From positions 64,603-128,602 of the forward strand of contig JAZUPT010000019.1 in the NCBI GenBank assembly GCA_045605345.1: a stretch of 64,000 bases of DNA. Reading direction: 5' to 3'. The position numbers were made by a program, and so were the translations under genes. Below, piece by piece: positions 43,354-52,959 of this stretch. Below the pieces are notes generated by a model that saw only the letters and a program-made list of their open reading frames with translations, made no database searches and was not told where the DNA came from. Source of the DNA: Candidatus Spyradenecus sp. (GTDB taxonomy: Bacteria > Verrucomicrobiota > Kiritimatiellia > RFP12 > DVOR01). The first letter of the stretch is position 1; the number at the start of each line of letters is the position of its first letter.

Positions 43354-43609
43354 TATACCATAAAAAGCGCGCCCGCGAGAGCACGCTCATTGGAACTAGA
43401 ATCGCTCACGAATGAATAATCTTTGGCGACTGGGATTTAGCCTCCTGCAACTACCAACTGTAGTAAAGCCACTGCTAATTTCTTCTCTCTACACACACTA
43501 AGAGTGTAGCAAAAGGAAGACAAGTCGTCAACTCCGTTCACTCAAGTCAGTTAAACTCCCGCGGAAAGTAGGCGGCTTTCCCTTGGGAAAATGGGCGACT
43601 TTAGCCACC

Positions 43610-43700
43610 CGATTTCGTCTATTTTGCTCACCAATTTCGCCTATATTGCTCACCAACTTCGCTTATTTTGCAACTCAATTTCACTTATATTGACCCGGAA
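43610..43700. promoter_or_regulatory. About 3.5 tandem 23-bp repeats, plus three TTGTTGATAACT motifs further downstream (43729-43955)
   Basis: TTCGTCTATTTTGCTCACCAA / TTCGCCTATATTGCTCACCAA / CTTCGCTTATTTTGCAACTCAA / TTTCACTTATATTGACC, in the AT-rich 900-bp region upstream of the giant gene. Confidence 0.4.
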
Positions 43701-44304
43701 TTCCTTTAGCTTTCCCCAAAAAAGCTCCCAATTGTTGATAACTTTTCTACCACTTCTACCCCAAATTTTCGCAAGGAAGCCGCTGTAGCGGAGTTGATTT
43801 CGCCCCATTTTTGCATTATCTCTTTATTTCTCAATGCGTTATGCAGTTTCAACAAGGTTGAGCAAAAGTGCCGAAAATCTGCCAATCCGTAGAAGAATTT
43901 TCCAAAAACTGCGTCAAAAAAACCGCATTGTTGATAACTCGTTGATAACTCAAAAAAGTTTTCAACAAGCGAAAAATCGATGAAATTTTCGAAAAAGTGA
44001 TGGTTTCGCGCACGAGATTTTAAGGGACAAAAGGGATGAAAGGGAGGAGGAAAGAGACAGTTACCGCGAACGCAGTTTTAGAGAAGTGACAATCAGGTCC
44101 ATGAGCCCCCGCTCAAACAAGTTCCTTTTCCTATTTCAAATAGTCTCTTTTAATTGTGATTTTCGCCTTTCAAAGATGCTTCCTCCTTGGCGAGCTGCGG
44201 ATGATCCATTCGCGCTTGGGAAACATTTCTATCAACTTCTCGTATGTATAATTATTGATTTATAAATCATTTTGAGTTATAGTGGTAATAGGATTGAGGT
44301 GAGC

Positions 44305-47300
44305 ATGAACACATTCTTCCTTTTTCGTGCGACTATCACATTGCTCTTCGCAATATTCACATATCACACTCTTTTTGCAGAGGGCGACTTCCTTGGGCCG
44401 CCGCTACCCAATCTATCTCCTGAAGATGAAACAGAATTACCGAATGAGGGAAGTGATGATAATGAAGATGCGCCTGTTGAGGAGAATACACCAACTTCAT
44501 TAGCACTTATTGATTACTCGTCTTTTTTTAATCATTATGATTGGAGCACGTGGGATGAACGCATCGCAACATGGTATTCAAATTGTCATGATGCTGCTTT
44601 AATGACTCCACCGCTTCCATTAGGCACAAGAATGCATCATGCCCTTGGTGTTGAAGAAGTTTTTCCTCCCTTTGATGAGTTTTGCCCAAATTTAGAAGCG
44701 ATTGTCGTAGGAGATATTCAAACGTGGCAAGTTCGTGTAGAGGAGCACATTAATGCAGAAGGAGAACGCTCCTTTTGGACGCTCATTGGGAATGTCATTG
44801 TTCATAAGTTGCCATCACCAATGACATTTAATCCAACGAATTGGATTTGTTCTCTTTATGAAGATAATCTTCCTACGTGGCTTTTTGAAGACGAAGAGCA
44901 AACAACGGAGTGGTTGAGTATACGTGACCGAAGTCGCCTTGCAATTACATTAACAATCTTGCCGACAGGAATGCTCTCGACTTACAATACGGTCATGATT
45001 GAACTTGCAGAAGCCGAGCGTGTCAAGCGCGAGGAAGCGCAACAAGACCCTACCGCCTTTGCTTTTACACGGATTGATGTATCAGATAAAGATGTCTTTT
45101 TTGAATTTTACAACCCACTTAATGTTCGACTAAACCTACTGACAAGGGTGCGCCTTGATGAGCCGTGGGCATTATTTGGGGAGGTAGGTGAAACATCTTC
45201 TTTAGGTTACACATCAATTACATTCCCGCGACAAGAAAAAAATGACCCACCCTTTTTCCGTATCGTTGATGCCGTCACAGATACGGACGGTGATGGTTTG
45301 GCGGACGGTCTTGAACTCAATTATTTTAAGAGTGACCCCACCAAACAAGATTCTTCTGGCTCAGGGATTAGCGATTGGGATAAAGTGTATGTTTATAAGC
45401 TTGATCCAAGCGTACGCGATTCTGATGGTGACGGGTTAATTGATGGCGAAGAGATTCACATTGGGACAAATCCACAAGTTGCTGATAGCGATGGCGATGG
45501 GTTAAATGATGCAGAGGAAGTTAATAGCCTTCAACCCGCAGTAGCGTTTACTTGGATTCCAATAACGGCCTCTATTTTAACAAATCCCACGACGGAGTGC
45601 ATTGAGATTATATTGCCATCTGCGGTCAGTTTCGCCGGACATTTGTATGACAAGGTTATTATTGACACTGTGGGTAAACTAACACTCTCGCATACGTCTA
45701 TAGGAGATTCAGTTGATGAATTGATTATTTCAGGACATAGCAATCATCCCTATCTTTCAATTGATGCAGAATCAGACATTCTGTTTGAAGCGACAACATT
45801 TAATGATGTCCCCTGTTTTGTTTTTTCTTTTGTTAATTTAATTTTTGACGATGAGCGAAAAAGTTCTAATCACATCACATTTCAGATTGTATTGAGTTCA
45901 ATGTTCCCTAATCGTGTTTGGATTAACTATCTCGATATTGGTAAAGATAAATGGAATAATGGTGCAATTGCACAAATTCAAAATAAAACAAAGAAATCTT
46001 CTATCACGTTCCCCTACCTAAATGAAGGCACACTTACCACGCAAATCTCACTTGAGGGACGTTTTGGCTATGGCACCAATCCACATCTACCAGACAGTGA
46101 TGCCGATGGGTTATTGGACGGTGTTGAGATTAAAGAGGCGGGAAGTTCGCCTTTAATTGCCGACACCGACAAGGACTCCTTGTCTGATGGCAAAGAATTC
46201 TGTCACTATCACACCTCGCCAGTGTTGATTGACACCGATGGCGACACATTGCCTGATGCATGGGAAATTCAACATGGATTAGACCCCTGCTCAACAAATG
46301 GCAATCATGGACGTTTAGGAGATCCAGATGGAGACCGGCTGCCGAATGAGCTTGAGATGGAATACCAAACGTCTCCGACCCTTGCCGATTCCGATAGGGA
46401 CGGGCTGTCCGATTCGCACGAGGTTGGTCAAATTACTACTGAGAATGTTAATGAGACGCGTTCTGGGACAGTGCTTCATTCACTAAGCCATAGTTCAAAT
46501 GCAGATTCATTAGTCGCAACATTTTCACTCCCCTCTGCAATTCGCTTTAATACTACGTCTTACTCTAAGATCTTAATTTCATTGGATGGTCACATTCTTT
46601 TATTTAATGATGACGAAAATTTCTCTGAACTGTCTTATTCAAACATAAAATTAACGGGACTGAAGAGTTGCGCAACAGCTCTTATTATTGCAGCCTTCTG
46701 GGATGATTTGTATTATTTCGGCAATGAAACACGCATCACATTGGAAGAAACGGAGGATTCTTATCTTGTTCGCTATCAAGATGTTGGGTTATATGATTTT
46801 AAGTCAAACCAATCGGTTGTAGGTACGTTTGTTATTACGCTTCCTAAAAATGCCAATCCTTCTATTTCAATCACATACTCCAATTTTTCCTCTTCTTTTA
46901 CATGTCAAAGTGCGACCATCGGTGTTCGCACTGCATCTCTAAGTCGTGATATTGGACATAAAGTGTACCAATACACTTTTAACCAGGCAGTAGTACTCAA
47001 TAATACTACGGTGAATTTTTTAATAGGAAGTGGCACAGACCCCAACCTTTCCGACACCGATAATGATGGCATCTTGGATAGTGAGGAACTTGCCATCAAC
47101 ACCTCACCCTTTAGCGCCGACGACGATTTAGATGGACTACCTGATGGTTGGGAAATACAGTATTCGCTTAACCCAAAGTTTGCGAGTGGCAATCATGGCG
47201 CTAATGGAGACCTCGATGGAGATTTTCTGCGAAACTTAGATGAATACCGCGCAGGTTCCTCTCCCTTACACAGTGACACTGATAATGACGGTCTACTGGA

Positions 47301-50300
47301 TATTCAAGAGTTTGGTGGAGTCGCATTACAGTATAACGCGTCATGGATAACTACACCAAGTTCAATGACTAACATTATGTCTCGATTTAAAAGTACTTCC
47401 ACGGGATACGTTACGATTGATTGTAGTGATGCGCCATTTCAGTTTTTGAACACAAATTACACCACGATGTCTATCAATCTTAATGGACGAATTGACTTAT
47501 TTAATGATGATGTGTCGCCATCAGGATTAGCCACGAAAGGTCCAAAAGACTACTACACATGTGAGTCACAACAAAATCATATTTTGTTAGCCCCAGCATC
47601 GGGCGATCTATTTCTTTCATCATCCTCTTCCATTCTTTATGGAGAAACCGTTCTGAATGGGAAGGTATATGTTGTGGTGGAGTATCAACAGATGGGGGAT
47701 TATTGGAATAATGCAGACCTTGCCAATCATCAAATTTCGGCTCAGATTCTAATTCCTCGCGTCATCTCTCCCATTGAGCCGATTATCATCAATTACAAGA
47801 ATGTCGCGGGCAATCTATCACGAGAGCGACTCTCCGTAGGCTTTACAACACCAACACATTCAAAAGGGCGCGGTTTCGTTTTTAGTGAAAACCGACCGCT
47901 ATCCTCACCCGAAAGTGTTGCATTATTCCTTGGGATTGGCACATCGGCCTCAAATACAGATAGCGATTGCGATGGAATTAGTGATGGAGATGAATACAAC
48001 TATGGTACAAATGCTATTCAACCAGACACAGATGGAGATGGATTGTCTGATGGCTGGGAAATGCAACATGCTTATAATCCCCTCGTTCACAATGAAACAG
48101 ACGCGATTGTAGGCAATGAAAGAGATGCTGACCCAGATGAGGATGGCTTAACCAACCAGGAAGAAGAGTGTTTTAAAACGGTTCCAAAACAAACCGATAG
48201 TGATGGTGATGGCGTAAGTGATAAGACGGAAATTGACCAATGCAGTCATCCAATGAATGCTCAGGATGAAGGGATTCCAATGACGTATTATCCGGTCACC
48301 TTCGAATTCGGCGATTGGAGCACAAGTCATTCTGAAAAATATTATTTAACAATTAGGCCATTGGGAGAAGCCGCTTCAAATGAAAGTAAAATTGGGTGGG
48401 TCAACCTTGAATATGGTCAAGTTGAAACAAAGATTGCGCTTCTTAAAAAAGGTACAACATATGAAGTGTCACTCACGCATGCGAGTTCAAACCAAAGCGA
48501 ACCAGACTTAGACTACACCCTCAATATTAAATCTCCCAATGGTAGCGGACTCATCATTACAGACGCTATTACATCCCCCTTGGGAGCGTTTGCTGAATCC
48601 GAATGGGACTCCTCCGATCGTCTGTTTAAATTAACACTTGCAGGAGGCGATATTTACTGTGACATCAATCGAGATGGTCAAATAGAACAAGCAGTTGATG
48701 GCATTGCTACTCGAAGTGGAAAGAAGGTGCTTCATCATTGGTCCAACGACGATTATGACGTAGGGAACTGTAGCGATGACAAGGGTGCAACAGACATCCC
48801 TAAGGGAAACCAAAGCATTTTTAACGGAAATGACTTAAATTATCGTGATGGCACTGTTAATGGACGAGCCGACCTATTAGATTTTGTTCCCCTTTGGTTT
48901 GATATCGCTGATTTAATTAATGCGTGTCCGATGACGCAAGACTACACGTATACATTGTCATCAACGCTTGAAGTCGGCATTGTTTTTACCGAATTAGCCG
49001 CCAATGATGTCTTTAGTTGGCAGACCTCTGATGTGATAACCTACGACAAGCAAGGGGACGAGACACCCTCACATGAAGCCTCCGTCTACCCGATTGATGA
49101 CGCAGGTTTAGAGCTTAACCAAACGCTACTCAACCATTTAACAACTGGCATTGTGATGCTTGAAGGTAACGAACCAGGAGAAGGAGAATTAAAGCTTACG
49201 GTTTTGAAAGATGATATACTTATTTCCGAAATCGCATTTCAATTCAAGATTGTTGAAGTTGAAAACATGTACCGTACCATTGACATCACTTCAATGCCAC
49301 ATACCGTTGCTAAGCCAAGTGCGCCGACAGGATTAGCAGACTCCTATTTTGCGGAAAACACGCCTTACCTTTTCTTCTTGCATGGGTTTAATGTAACACC
49401 TAACACAGCGCGAGGATGGCAAGCAGAAATGTTTAAACGTTTGTGGCAGACTGGGTGTGATATGAAATTCGTTGGCGTAACGTGGTTTGGTGAAGAGGGT
49501 GTATTTGAGGCTTTTCGTTACCAAGAAAATGTCCGCAACGCACTTCTGTCAGGCGAATCATTCGCAGCATTGATGTCGCATTACAGTCAAGATAAAACGG
49601 TCGTAATGGCTCATAGCTTAGGCAATATGGTCGTCTCTTCTGCGTTTCAATTCTATGGCGCGACGTGTGACACCTTTATGATGCTTAATGCTGCAATCCC
49701 AAGCGAAGCTTTTGGGGCAACAGTTTCTAATGCTGACGAATACGTGAACTGTTTCGAAAGCGAGCAGCTCTTTGTTCCCGAGTCGTGGCACTCCTATCCC
49801 TGCAAGTCGTGGAGTGTTAATTGGCATAAACTCTTTTCCGCTGACGAAAAAGAGTCTAAATTAACATGGCGCAACGCATTCAAAGATGTCCCAACGAAAA
49901 CAACGGTCTATAACTTCTATTCCTCTGAAGATGAAGTCTTTGAACTTCACCACACGGTCCCATCAATGTTATCAGGAACAGAATTTGATCTTGCTTGGCC
50001 CTACATTGATTGGACTTTCCCTTATCTCCATCTACTATCGTCAATCCGAGTTGAAGCATCCCGCTATGCTTGGCATAAACAAGAAGTGTTTAAGGGAATG
50101 AATGGCCCCATTGGAACAAAAGGTGGTGGATGGTCATTCCATTGTCGCGAGCGTGGATTTAAGGTTTACCCAACGGGTGACGACGCGAGAAATGCAACAG
50201 ATACGCGATTACGGACGCGCCCCGTCTTTTCTACACGCGAAACCCCCTTCTTACGTAATGTGTCACAATACTCCGATGAAGAGTACTTCACACTCCTCGC

Positions 50301-50532
50301 CCTTCACATACCGGCCCTCACGCCTGCAATGGGAAGACCAGAAAATGCGACATTTTCGGATGTCGCCTCACTCTATCCGATTGACATGATTACAGTCAAA
50401 AACAATGGATGGGGGCGAGAACATTTTGAGTACAAAGGCCGTTGGCTTCATAGTGATGTCAAGAATATGGCATATTTTTATGTACATGAGCTTTTTCAAA
50501 CACTTAATTCTCTTGTGAAAAGGAGCAAATAA
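44305..50532 (+). CDS. Giant secreted multidomain protein: TSP3 calcium-binding repeats, three NIDO-like domains and a C-terminal alpha/beta-hydrolase (lipase/esterase-like) domain
   Basis: Signal peptide MNTFFLFRATITLLFAIFTYHTLFA, with RBS GAGGTGA before ATG 44305. There are at least 15 DxDxDGxxDxxE repeats (for example DTDGDGLADGLE, DSDGDGLIDGEE). Three paralogous domains of about 200 aa carry an FxFPxxxYxKIxIxxDGxIxLFND-type core. The C-terminal region has an LHGF oxyanion motif, an AHSLGN nucleophile elbow, and downstream D/H candidates. GC is much lower than the core genes. Confidence 0.8.
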   Translation: MNTFFLFRATITLLFAIFTYHTLFAEGDFLGPPLPNLSPEDETELPNEGSDDNEDAPVEENTPTSLALIDYSSFFNHYDWSTWDERIATWYSNCHDAALMTPPLPLGTRMHHALGVEEVFPPFDEFCPNLEAIVVGDIQTWQVRVEEHINAEGERSFWTLIGNVIVHKLPSPMTFNPTNWICSLYEDNLPTWLFEDEEQTTEWLSIRDRSRLAITLTILPTGMLSTYNTVMIELAEAERVKREEAQQDPTAFAFTRIDVSDKDVFFEFYNPLNVRLNLLTRVRLDEPWALFGEVGETSSLGYTSITFPRQEKNDPPFFRIVDAVTDTDGDGLADGLELNYFKSDPTKQDSSGSGISDWDKVYVYKLDPSVRDSDGDGLIDGEEIHIGTNPQVADSDGDGLNDAEEVNSLQPAVAFTWIPITASILTNPTTECIEIILPSAVSFAGHLYDKVIIDTVGKLTLSHTSIGDSVDELIISGHSNHPYLSIDAESDILFEATTFNDVPCFVFSFVNLIFDDERKSSNHITFQIVLSSMFPNRVWINYLDIGKDKWNNGAIAQIQNKTKKSSITFPYLNEGTLTTQISLEGRFGYGTNPHLPDSDADGLLDGVEIKEAGSSPLIADTDKDSLSDGKEFCHYHTSPVLIDTDGDTLPDAWEIQHGLDPCSTNGNHGRLGDPDGDRLPNELEMEYQTSPTLADSDRDGLSDSHEVGQITTENVNETRSGTVLHSLSHSSNADSLVATFSLPSAIRFNTTSYSKILISLDGHILLFNDDENFSELSYSNIKLTGLKSCATALIIAAFWDDLYYFGNETRITLEETEDSYLVRYQDVGLYDFKSNQSVVGTFVITLPKNANPSISITYSNFSSSFTCQSATIGVRTASLSRDIGHKVYQYTFNQAVVLNNTTVNFLIGSGTDPNLSDTDNDGILDSEELAINTSPFSADDDLDGLPDGWEIQYSLNPKFASGNHGANGDLDGDFLRNLDEYRAGSSPLHSDTDNDGLLDIQEFGGVALQYNASWITTPSSMTNIMSRFKSTSTGYVTIDCSDAPFQFLNTNYTTMSINLNGRIDLFNDDVSPSGLATKGPKDYYTCESQQNHILLAPASGDLFLSSSSSILYGETVLNGKVYVVVEYQQMGDYWNNADLANHQISAQILIPRVISPIEPIIINYKNVAGNLSRERLSVGFTTPTHSKGRGFVFSENRPLSSPESVALFLGIGTSASNTDSDCDGISDGDEYNYGTNAIQPDTDGDGLSDGWEMQHAYNPLVHNETDAIVGNERDADPDEDGLTNQEEECFKTVPKQTDSDGDGVSDKTEIDQCSHPMNAQDEGIPMTYYPVTFEFGDWSTSHSEKYYLTIRPLGEAASNESKIGWVNLEYGQVETKIALLKKGTTYEVSLTHASSNQSEPDLDYTLNIKSPNGSGLIITDAITSPLGAFAESEWDSSDRLFKLTLAGGDIYCDINRDGQIEQAVDGIATRSGKKVLHHWSNDDYDVGNCSDDKGATDIPKGNQSIFNGNDLNYRDGTVNGRADLLDFVPLWFDIADLINACPMTQDYTYTLSSTLEVGIVFTELAANDVFSWQTSDVITYDKQGDETPSHEASVYPIDDAGLELNQTLLNHLTTGIVMLEGNEPGEGELKLTVLKDDILISEIAFQFKIVEVENMYRTIDITSMPHTVAKPSAPTGLADSYFAENTPYLFFLHGFNVTPNTARGWQAEMFKRLWQTGCDMKFVGVTWFGEEGVFEAFRYQENVRNALLSGESFAALMSHYSQDKTVVMAHSLGNMVVSSAFQFYGATCDTFMMLNAAIPSEAFGATVSNADEYVNCFESEQLFVPESWHSYPCKSWSVNWHKLFSADEKESKLTWRNAFKDVPTKTTVYNFYSSEDEVFELHHTVPSMLSGTEFDLAWPYIDWTFPYLHLLSSIRVEASRYAWHKQEVFKGMNGPIGTKGGGWSFHCRERGFKVYPTGDDARNATDTRLRTRPVFSTRETPFLRNVSQYSDEEYFTLLALHIPALTPAMGRPENATFSDVASLYPIDMITVKNNGWGREHFEYKGRWLHSDVKNMAYFYVHELFQTLNSLVKRSK

Positions 50533-51593
50533 TGAAAATGTTTTATCACATTATGATTTTGTCATTATTACTTATGACAGCATGTGCAAACACATATGTT
50601 CCCAAAGCCAAAGTTACAATTCGTTCGGTGAACCAAGATGGGAAACCAATTGTAAACGAACCTGTGCGAATAGGATTTTCGTCATGGGGAGGAGTCTATG
50701 GAAAAACAGATCAGAATGGTTGCTTTACTGCAGAAGGACGACCGACGAGTGATTATCTTTTTGCAATCGGCCGGATGAAGGTAGATGAGGAATCCCCAAA
50801 GTATTATGCAACCTATTTTAGTAAAGATATCGCCCACTGGAAAGATTATCCCAAAGACGGCAAGTGGAAACCGTGGAATGAAACGATTGAAGTCGTCGTA
50901 AAAGAAAAAATAAATCCTATTCCAATGTATGCAAATGGGATTAAATTTAAAACAAATATCCCAGTCATTGATGAGTGGGTAGGATATGATTTCGAATACA
51001 ATGACTGGGTCGCTCCTCATGGCAAGGGGATTGTCGCAGATATTGAAGTTTCTCTTTCCGAAGAAAAGCCAACCGAAGAGGATGAAATTGAAGCATTGAA
51101 GATTCGTTTTCCGTATCCCCTCGCAGGCGCATACGTTATGAAAAAAGACCTCAATTGTGACTTTAAGTCCGTGTACCACGCAAATCCCAACGCAACGTAT
51201 GAACAAGAGATAACATGGTATAAAGCATATAAAATGATGGATGACATCAACCCTCATGCTTGGACAGAAAAAGAACGTTATTTTAAAGTAAGCAGAATGG
51301 TTAAATACAATCTCCTCTCCAAAGACGATTATCTCATTTTTCGTACACGAACAAAAGTGGACGAAAATGGGAATCTCATTGAAGCCCGTTATGGAAAAAT
51401 TTATGGACCTATTGAGTTTCGGTTAAATCTAACAGATGAAAGGCCGTCCTATCGCAAGCGTGTCACCCTCTGGAACTATTATTTCAATCCTACTGTTAAT
51501 GACACGAATCTTGAATATGATTTAAAACGTAATTTACTCAGTGACAAGGTTAAACCCAGAAAACGTGTAAACAACTCTCGTGTGTGGCCATAA
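50532..51593 (+). CDS. Lipoprotein paralog 1 with an N-terminal CarboxypepD_reg-like beta-sandwich; candidate immunity protein
   Basis: Lipobox LLLMTACAN. Its ATG overlaps the giant gene's stop (TAATG). It is about 90% identical overall to the next gene. Confidence 0.7.
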   Translation: MKMFYHIMILSLLLMTACANTYVPKAKVTIRSVNQDGKPIVNEPVRIGFSSWGGVYGKTDQNGCFTAEGRPTSDYLFAIGRMKVDEESPKYYATYFSKDIAHWKDYPKDGKWKPWNETIEVVVKEKINPIPMYANGIKFKTNIPVIDEWVGYDFEYNDWVAPHGKGIVADIEVSLSEEKPTEEDEIEALKIRFPYPLAGAYVMKKDLNCDFKSVYHANPNATYEQEITWYKAYKMMDDINPHAWTEKERYFKVSRMVKYNLLSKDDYLIFRTRTKVDENGNLIEARYGKIYGPIEFRLNLTDERPSYRKRVTLWNYYFNPTVNDTNLEYDLKRNLLSDKVKPRKRVNNSRVWP

Positions 51594-51649: not shown

Positions 51650-51742
51650 TTGGCTTCATAGTGACGTCAAGAATATGGCTTATTTTTATATCCATCCGCT
51701 CTTTTCTCACATAGTAGAAATTCTTCAGAGAGGCTCCAAATG
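51650..51742 (+). repeat. Orphan copy of the giant gene's 3' end (encodes WLHSDVKNMAYFYIHPLFSHIVEILQRGSK*)
   Basis: TTGGCTTCATAGTGACGTCAAGAATATGGCTTATTTTTAT matches 50442-50482. It is in frame and ends with a TGA that overlaps the ATG of paralog 2. Confidence 0.75.
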
Positions 51743-52786
51743 AAAAAACACGTAACACTTGTTCTGTCTTTTTTATTTCTTTTAACTGCTTGTGCCCACA
51801 ACTACATTCCCGAAGCCAAGGTAACATTTAAGGTTGTTGATATGCATGGAAATCCAATCCCAAACGAAGATGCCACATTAGGTTTTTCACCCACGATTGG
51901 ATTTCATGGGAAAACGGATGAGAATGGTTATTTTACAGGCCGTGGTCGAACAGAAAGTGATTACGTCTTTTCTGTTGCTCGCGAATCAAACAAATACTAT
52001 CGAACCCGTTTTAGTAAAGATATCGCCCACTGGAAAGATTATCCCAAAGACGGCAAGTGGAAACCGTGGAATGAGACCATTAAAATCGTTGTAAAAGAAG
52101 AAATAAATCCTATTCCAATGTATGCAAATGGGATTAATTTTAAAACAAATATCCCTGTCGTTGATGAGTGGGTAGGATATGATTTCGAATACAATGACTG
52201 GGTCGCTCCTCATGGCAAGGGGATTGTTGCAGATATTGAAGTTTCTCTTTCCGAAGAAAAGCCAACCGAAGAGGATGAAATTGAAACGTTGAAGATTCGT
52301 TTCCCGTATCCCCTCGCAGGTGCATACGTTATGAAAAAAGACCTCAATTGTGACCTTAAGTCCGTGTACCACGCAAATCCTAACGCAACGTATGAACAAG
52401 AGATCACATGGTATAAAGCATATAAAATGATGGATGACATCAACCCTCATGCTTGGACAGAAAAAGAACGTTATTTTAAAGTAAGTAGAATGGTTAAATA
52501 CAATCTCCTCTCCAAAGACGATTATCTCATTTTTCGTACACGAACAAAAGTGGACGAAAATGGGAATCTCATTGAAGCCCGTTATGGAAAAATTTATGGA
52601 CCCATTGAGTTTCGGTTAAATCTAACAGATGAAAGACCGTCCTATCGCAAGCGTGTCACCCTCTGGAACTATTATCTCAATCCTACTGTTAATGACACGA
52701 ATCTTGAATATGATTCAAAGCGTAATTTACTCATTGACAAGGTCAAACCCAGAGAACGTGTGAACTACTCTGGTGTGTGGCCATAA
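51740..52786 (+). CDS. Lipoprotein paralog 2
   Basis: Lipobox LLLTACAH. Residues about 100-348 are nearly identical to paralog 1, whereas the N-terminal ~90 residues have diverged to roughly 55% identity. Confidence 0.7.
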   Translation: MKKHVTLVLSFLFLLTACAHNYIPEAKVTFKVVDMHGNPIPNEDATLGFSPTIGFHGKTDENGYFTGRGRTESDYVFSVARESNKYYRTRFSKDIAHWKDYPKDGKWKPWNETIKIVVKEEINPIPMYANGINFKTNIPVVDEWVGYDFEYNDWVAPHGKGIVADIEVSLSEEKPTEEDEIETLKIRFPYPLAGAYVMKKDLNCDLKSVYHANPNATYEQEITWYKAYKMMDDINPHAWTEKERYFKVSRMVKYNLLSKDDYLIFRTRTKVDENGNLIEARYGKIYGPIEFRLNLTDERPSYRKRVTLWNYYLNPTVNDTNLEYDSKRNLLIDKVKPRERVNYSGVWP

Positions 52787-52849: not shown

Positions 52850-52900
52850 TTGGCTTCATAGTGACGTCAAGAATATGGCGTATTTTTATGTTTGTTGATT
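52850..52900 (+). repeat. Second orphan copy of the giant gene's 3' end (WLHSDVKNMAYFYVC*)
   Basis: TTGGCTTCATAGTGACGTCAAGAATATGGCGTATTTTTATG. The preceding 55-bp spacer is also shared with 51594-51649. Confidence 0.75.
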
Positions 52901-52959
52901 GAAAAAGTAAGTGGGCAGGTGGAACGAAATTACCTGTCCACTTACTTTCTTAATCAGCC

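Follow-up and report, generated by a model that had tools for sequence, protein, structure and literature searches.

The window, the whole 64,000-nucleotide stretch analysed, holds a three-gene unit composed of a giant gene and two lipoprotein genes, Lip1 and Lip2. The giant protein ends in a hydrolase domain (H) that, judged from sequence and a structural model, is a lipase-like Ser-His-acid hydrolase of the DUF900 type, in which every catalytic motif is intact and whose activity is predicted. Lip is the conserved, translationally coupled cognate partner of H, and the H–Lip pairing was kept across phyla regardless of the region N-terminal to H. We give about an even chance to the reading that H is a Sec-exported lipase/phospholipase-type effector carried on a calcium-binding stalk and that Lip is its periplasmic immunity protein or inhibitor, as in Tle/Tli pairs; this function is predicted.

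Organization of the Locus

The following elements were located (all but the leader on the plus strand).
43354–44304, no strand assigned: non-coding leader 5′ of the giant gene (950 bp)
44305–50532, plus: giant CDS, an intact ORF of 2075 aa followed by a TAA stop
50532–51593, plus: Lip1, 353-aa lipoprotein, lipobox LMTA↓C
51650–51742, plus: H-tail relic 1, encoding WLHSDVKNMAYFYIHPLFSHIVEILQRGSK
51740–52786, plus: Lip2, 348-aa lipoprotein, lipobox LLTA↓C
52850–52895, plus: H-tail relic 2, truncated, encoding WLHSDVKNMAYFYVC followed by a stop
52900–52952, plus: strong hairpin (fold energy −27.7 kcal/mol, z −6.9) with UUUCUU after it

The original prediction had assigned 2086 aa to the product. 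The single ORF is real, but this length belongs to the form with an upstream TTG start (44272–50532 in the ORF listing), because 44305–50532 begins at an ATG (MNTFFLF...) and yields 2075 aa. A database orthologue with 97% identity to the giant protein (P0001) was likewise called at 2075 aa. The GC content was 0.43 in the giant gene and 0.39 in the Lip genes versus 0.52 in the flanks, in agreement with the low-GC island described earlier; the duplicated lipoprotein genes are likewise present, as Lip1 and Lip2. The leader contained a 22-bp tandem repeat (43612–43692, 3.7 copies) and a GTTGATAACTC doublet (43930–43951), and a promoter scan of it revealed nothing above chance. The hairpin downstream of relic 2 is likely the terminator of the giant–Lip1–Lip2 unit.

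Signal Peptide, Calcium Repeats and NIDO-Like Domains

The giant protein was resolved into a Sec-type signal, an N-domain, four TSP3 blocks alternating with three beta domains, the M domain and H, and the architecture proposed earlier (signal, calcium repeats, three beta domains and C-terminal hydrolase) thus held overall. The TSP3 blocks were defined by motif scan and Pfam TSP3_bac, and the beta domains by a jackhmmer profile (E-values in brackets).
44305–44379, plus: Sec-type signal peptide, aa 1–25, read directly from the sequence
44380–45279, plus: N-terminal domain, aa 26–325, an acidic linker and then a domain of no known family
45280–45519, plus: TSP3 block 1, aa 326–405, 3 motifs
45526–46089, plus: NIDO-like beta domain A, aa 408–595 (3.5e-30)
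46093–46422, plus: TSP3 block 2, aa 597–706, 5 motifs
46423–47052, plus: NIDO-like beta domain B, aa 707–916 (1.8e-59)
47053–47310, plus: TSP3 block 3, aa 917–1002, 3 motifs and 1 degenerate motif
47317–47946, plus: NIDO-like beta domain C, aa 1005–1214 (2.9e-35)
47959–48231, plus: TSP3 block 4, aa 1219–1309, 4 motifs

By eye, the signal (MNTFFLFRATITLLFAIFTYHTLFA, followed by EG) combines a charged n-region with a hydrophobic core of 12 residues, and the residue at −1 is small; cleavage is probable at LFA↓EG. A hydrophobic N-terminal segment was found in 102 of 120 giant-protein homologues, in line with a Sec-type signal. The N-terminal domain (aa 26–325) had no Pfam match at E ≤ 10 and was kept in only 13/120 homologues.

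At least 15 motifs of the thrombospondin type-3 kind had been described. With the pattern D.D.D[G/x]..[D/N]..E, 15 were found (aa 326, 372, 394, 597, 620, 643, 673, 695, 917, 939, 991, 1219, 1241, 1276 and 1298), 11 of them in the strict form DxDxDGxxDxxE, and Pfam TSP3_bac scored 114.7 bits (cut-off 25, E 1.5e-33).

The claim of three mutually similar beta-rich domains was also supported: one shared jackhmmer profile fitted all three, each of about 200 aa, across nearly its full length, BLASTP aligned domains B and C with 25% identity over 175 aa, and the AF2 model of domain B was all-beta (pLDDT 90.2). Their resemblance to NIDO stood at the level of profiles only. Domains A, B and C themselves gave no Pfam NIDO match at E ≤ 10, but profile–profile alignment with hhalign was significant (94% probability, P 1.4e-7, controls flat) and covered 125–171 columns in a single register across the LP..NG, APFW.D, VV.W/Y and (S/T)FQ.V motifs. 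NIDO was the only Pfam family matched repeatedly by copies of the beta domain: three homologous copies out of 42, as well as the family consensus, matched it at E ∼0.002, below the cut-off (18.6 bits versus 25, partial).

Conserved M Domain and C-Terminal Hydrolase

The C-terminal part of the protein comprised the following features.
48232–49284, plus: M domain, aa 1310–1660, 350 aa, from the homologue alignment
49285–50529, plus: H domain, aa 1661–2075, 415 aa, DUF900-type lipase-like alpha/beta hydrolase
49381–49386, plus: oxyanion H1693-G1694 (LHGF)
49615–49617, plus: nucleophile S1771 in AHSLGN
49705–49707, plus: acid candidate E1801
49930–49932, plus: acid candidate D1876
50449–50451, plus: catalytic H2049

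A conserved domain preceding the hydrolase, M, was overlooked in the original prediction. It consists of a beta-sandwich and an acidic subdomain that probably binds calcium, has no sequence relative in Pfam or PDB, and was present in all 110 representatives with at least 120 aa N-terminal to H; its invariant residues in the alignment are D1453, D1465, W1479, N1481, D1483, D1485, G1520, D1523, D1526 and P1529.

For H, the predicted LHGF and AHSLGN motifs were present, in a domain of 415 rather than ∼450 aa. The HG pair, S1771 of AHSLGN, H2049, E1801 and D/E1876 were invariant in 74 H homologues. Pfam DUF900 matched H at 22.8 bits (cut-off 20.5), and the H family consensus passed both DUF900 and Abhydrolase_6. 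The Tle-associated Pfam families gave no significant match to H, DUF676 and PGAP1 reaching E ∼0.1 only. When M and H were modelled jointly (pLDDT 86.7, pTM 0.87), S1771 lay between strand and helix, as expected of a nucleophile elbow. Foldseek matched pancreatic-lipase-related protein 2 with probability 1.0.

Lip Genes and H-Tail Relics

The Lip1 ATG overlaps the TAA of the giant gene (TAATG), and AAGGAG lies 6 nt upstream of the start; on this basis the H segment of the giant gene and Lip1 are read as translationally coupled. The N-terminal domain of Lip1 is Ig-like/CarboxypepD_reg-like, and its C-terminal 240 aa belong to no known family. Lip2 is a mosaic paralogue of Lip1, with ∼48% identity over the first 95 aa and ∼96% beyond, and is flanked by the two H-tail relics, one on each side. 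In relic 1, a stop codon stands one codon 5′ of the motif, and the TGA of the relic overlaps the ATG of Lip2. An N-terminal hydrophobic signal was found in 101 of 112 Lip homologues. Lip matched no known immunity or foldase family, nor any other known family beyond a generic Ig-like domain.

The same order was observed elsewhere. H lay directly 5′ of Lip in 4/4 independently fetched giant-homologue loci, and the two genes adjoined in this order in three MAGs (Desulfuromonadales, Akkermansia sp. and Kiritimatiellae) and on unclassified metagenome contigs; these cases included stand-alone H genes of 395–418 aa. Among metagenomic Lip genes, 63 had 1.4 kb or more of upstream sequence, and these were preceded by a full H (33), a 5′-truncated H orphan (13), another Lip (12) or neither (5); in all, 58 of the 63 follow H, truncated H or Lip. 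The median H-to-Lip gap was 6.5 nt. The lipoproteins, described earlier as mere neighbours, proved to be conserved, coupled partners of H. Lip occurred in arrays of one to three copies and also without H. Extra copies were commonly preceded by a 5′-truncated H remnant, as in the window, and H-tail relics were also present in three further loci (L132, L123 and L075). The breakpoints of the orphans were scattered (H-profile positions 84–361). The co-divergence of H and Lip was moderate (rho 0.44) and not concentrated in the H tail. Since the partner-lipoprotein genes always lie downstream, in a toxin-antidote-like layout, the giant gene probably marks a large undescribed family.

Proposed Function and Alternative Explanations

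The effector idea of the original prediction was strengthened by the coupled partner gene, the Lip arrays and the 5′-truncated H orphans each trailed by a Lip. In this proposal, H would be a membrane-lipid-directed esterase or phospholipase, and the giant protein an effector, secreted or displayed on the surface, whose most likely targets are competing bacteria and whose calcium-stiffened TSP3/NIDO-like stalk may present or target H. Lip would act as a cognate inhibitor in the periplasm or envelope, guarding the producer during export and against the neighbours' enzyme. The orphan cassettes of H-tail and Lip could be recombination leftovers that widen the immunity repertoire, parallel to CDI/Rhs orphan toxin-immunity modules and to the arrays of Tli genes known for T6SS lipase effectors. 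Cinquedea, an archaeal hydrolase of the DUF900 type, is reported to be a bactericidal phospholipase A that is secreted (bioRxiv 10.64898/2026.06.10.730825), and the Tli3 immunity protein is an outer-membrane lipoprotein (PMC9860674). Counting against the effector reading are the constant enzyme, the absence of secretion-system and T6SS genes among the 36 window ORFs scanned, the lack of a match between Lip and any known immunity family, the moderate co-divergence and the anchor-like N-termini. The term polymorphic toxin did not hold in the strict sense, given that the H family is constant and the N-terminal stalk variable among homologues, the reverse of the classical ones.

A partner gene right after a lipase gene would also be consistent with a chaperone or activator. 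Lip may be a dedicated helper that acts specifically on the lipase as its chaperone, activator or membrane anchor, in the manner of Lif foldases or the activating Tli of Enterobacter cloacae; H, secreted or at the surface, would then be a lipase or esterase that serves nutrient acquisition or host interaction. A lipase gene with a coupled accessory gene is a known arrangement, LipA:LipB (9g8u) was among the Foldseek matches, translational coupling suggests stoichiometric co-production of H and Lip, and the E. cloacae Tli activates as well as neutralises its Tle (10.1101/2023.03.28.534661; PMC10294624). However, Lip, a beta-rich protein whose N-domain is Ig-like, matched no foldase family, and arrays of two or three diverged Lip genes, Lip genes without H and H-tail remnants are unusual in chaperones and typical of immunity genes, so that we consider a helper role unlikely.

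Rather improbable is a resident envelope or matrix adhesin or cohesion factor like myxobacterial CglD/MtsD, whose esterase would remodel the cell's own envelope or polysaccharide with Lip as a regulatory partner. The uncleaved-looking N-terminal anchors of many homologues would suit a resident envelope protein, and CglD and MtsD were the best NCBIfam matches, via TSP3 repeats only; their scores lay far under the cut-offs (108.9 versus 400 and 89.9 versus 800). The family core is M+H+Lip rather than the stalk, stand-alone H–Lip pairs occur, orphan cassettes are unexpected for a housekeeping enzyme, and the gene lies in a low-GC island, with a 46%-identical orthologue at a different chromosomal position.

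Recent acquisition of the scaffold from a eukaryote (matrix mimicry through horizontally transferred thrombospondin and nidogen modules), suggested by the atypical GC and by TSP3 and NIDO being best known in metazoan matrix proteins, is very improbable, and the label eukaryotic was not upheld, as the repeats fit the bacterial TSP3_bac model, the beta domains are too diverged for the Pfam NIDO cut-off and form their own large bacterial family (290 copies in 109 bacterial relatives by jackhmmer profile), and no solved chain, eukaryotic or other, was matched in sequence by the whole giant protein at E ≤ 1.

Comparison with Known Systems

The beta domains share with metazoan NIDO (PF06119; nidogen-1, SNED1, alpha-tectorin) the profile–profile match, but differ in their sub-cut-off Pfam match, bacterial setting and interleaving with TSP3 repeats. 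CglD and MtsD (NCBIfam NF033765 and NF047639) are, like the giant protein, large exported proteins with runs of bacterial TSP3 calcium repeats; their models align to these repeats and not to the NIDO-like, M or H regions, far under the equivalog cut-offs.

In CdiA-CT/CdiI and Rhs-CT/RhsI loci, a full gene and its partner are followed by 5′-truncated enzyme C-terminal fragments, each with a partner gene. The H-tail fragments before Lip in the window and in the three further loci resemble these orphan cassettes. Unlike CDI/Rhs, the H family is not exchanged among unrelated toxin folds, and H has no conserved VENN- or PxxxxDPxGL-type demarcation motif.

H passes the cut-off of the DUF900 (PF05990) hydrolases, although the match spans only about the first third of H (profile positions 22–113 of 232) and ∼160 additional residues separate strand 7 of H from its catalytic His. 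Curated DUF900 is described as alpha-proteobacterial and of unknown function (PMC11878206). Of the archaeal cinquedea homologues, 69% carry DUF900, and cinquedea itself is structurally similar to hornet venom PLA1; unlike H–Lip, it reportedly forms a single-gene unit without a partner gene (bioRxiv 10.64898/2026.06.10.730825).

By sequence, H belongs to no known Tle family and Lip to no known Tli family. In contrast to Tle/Tli loci, the window ORFs scanned include neither VgrG, PAAR or Hcp genes nor further T6SS genes, and the giant protein has a Sec signal peptide and a 1600-aa TSP3/NIDO-like stalk. T6SS Tle1–5/Tli pairs (e.g., AIEC Tle3/Tli3, PDB 8boz) nevertheless share with H–Lip an alpha/beta-hydrolase lipase with a GxSxG-type elbow and an adjoining exported partner, often a lipoprotein, whose genes are sometimes multi-copy.

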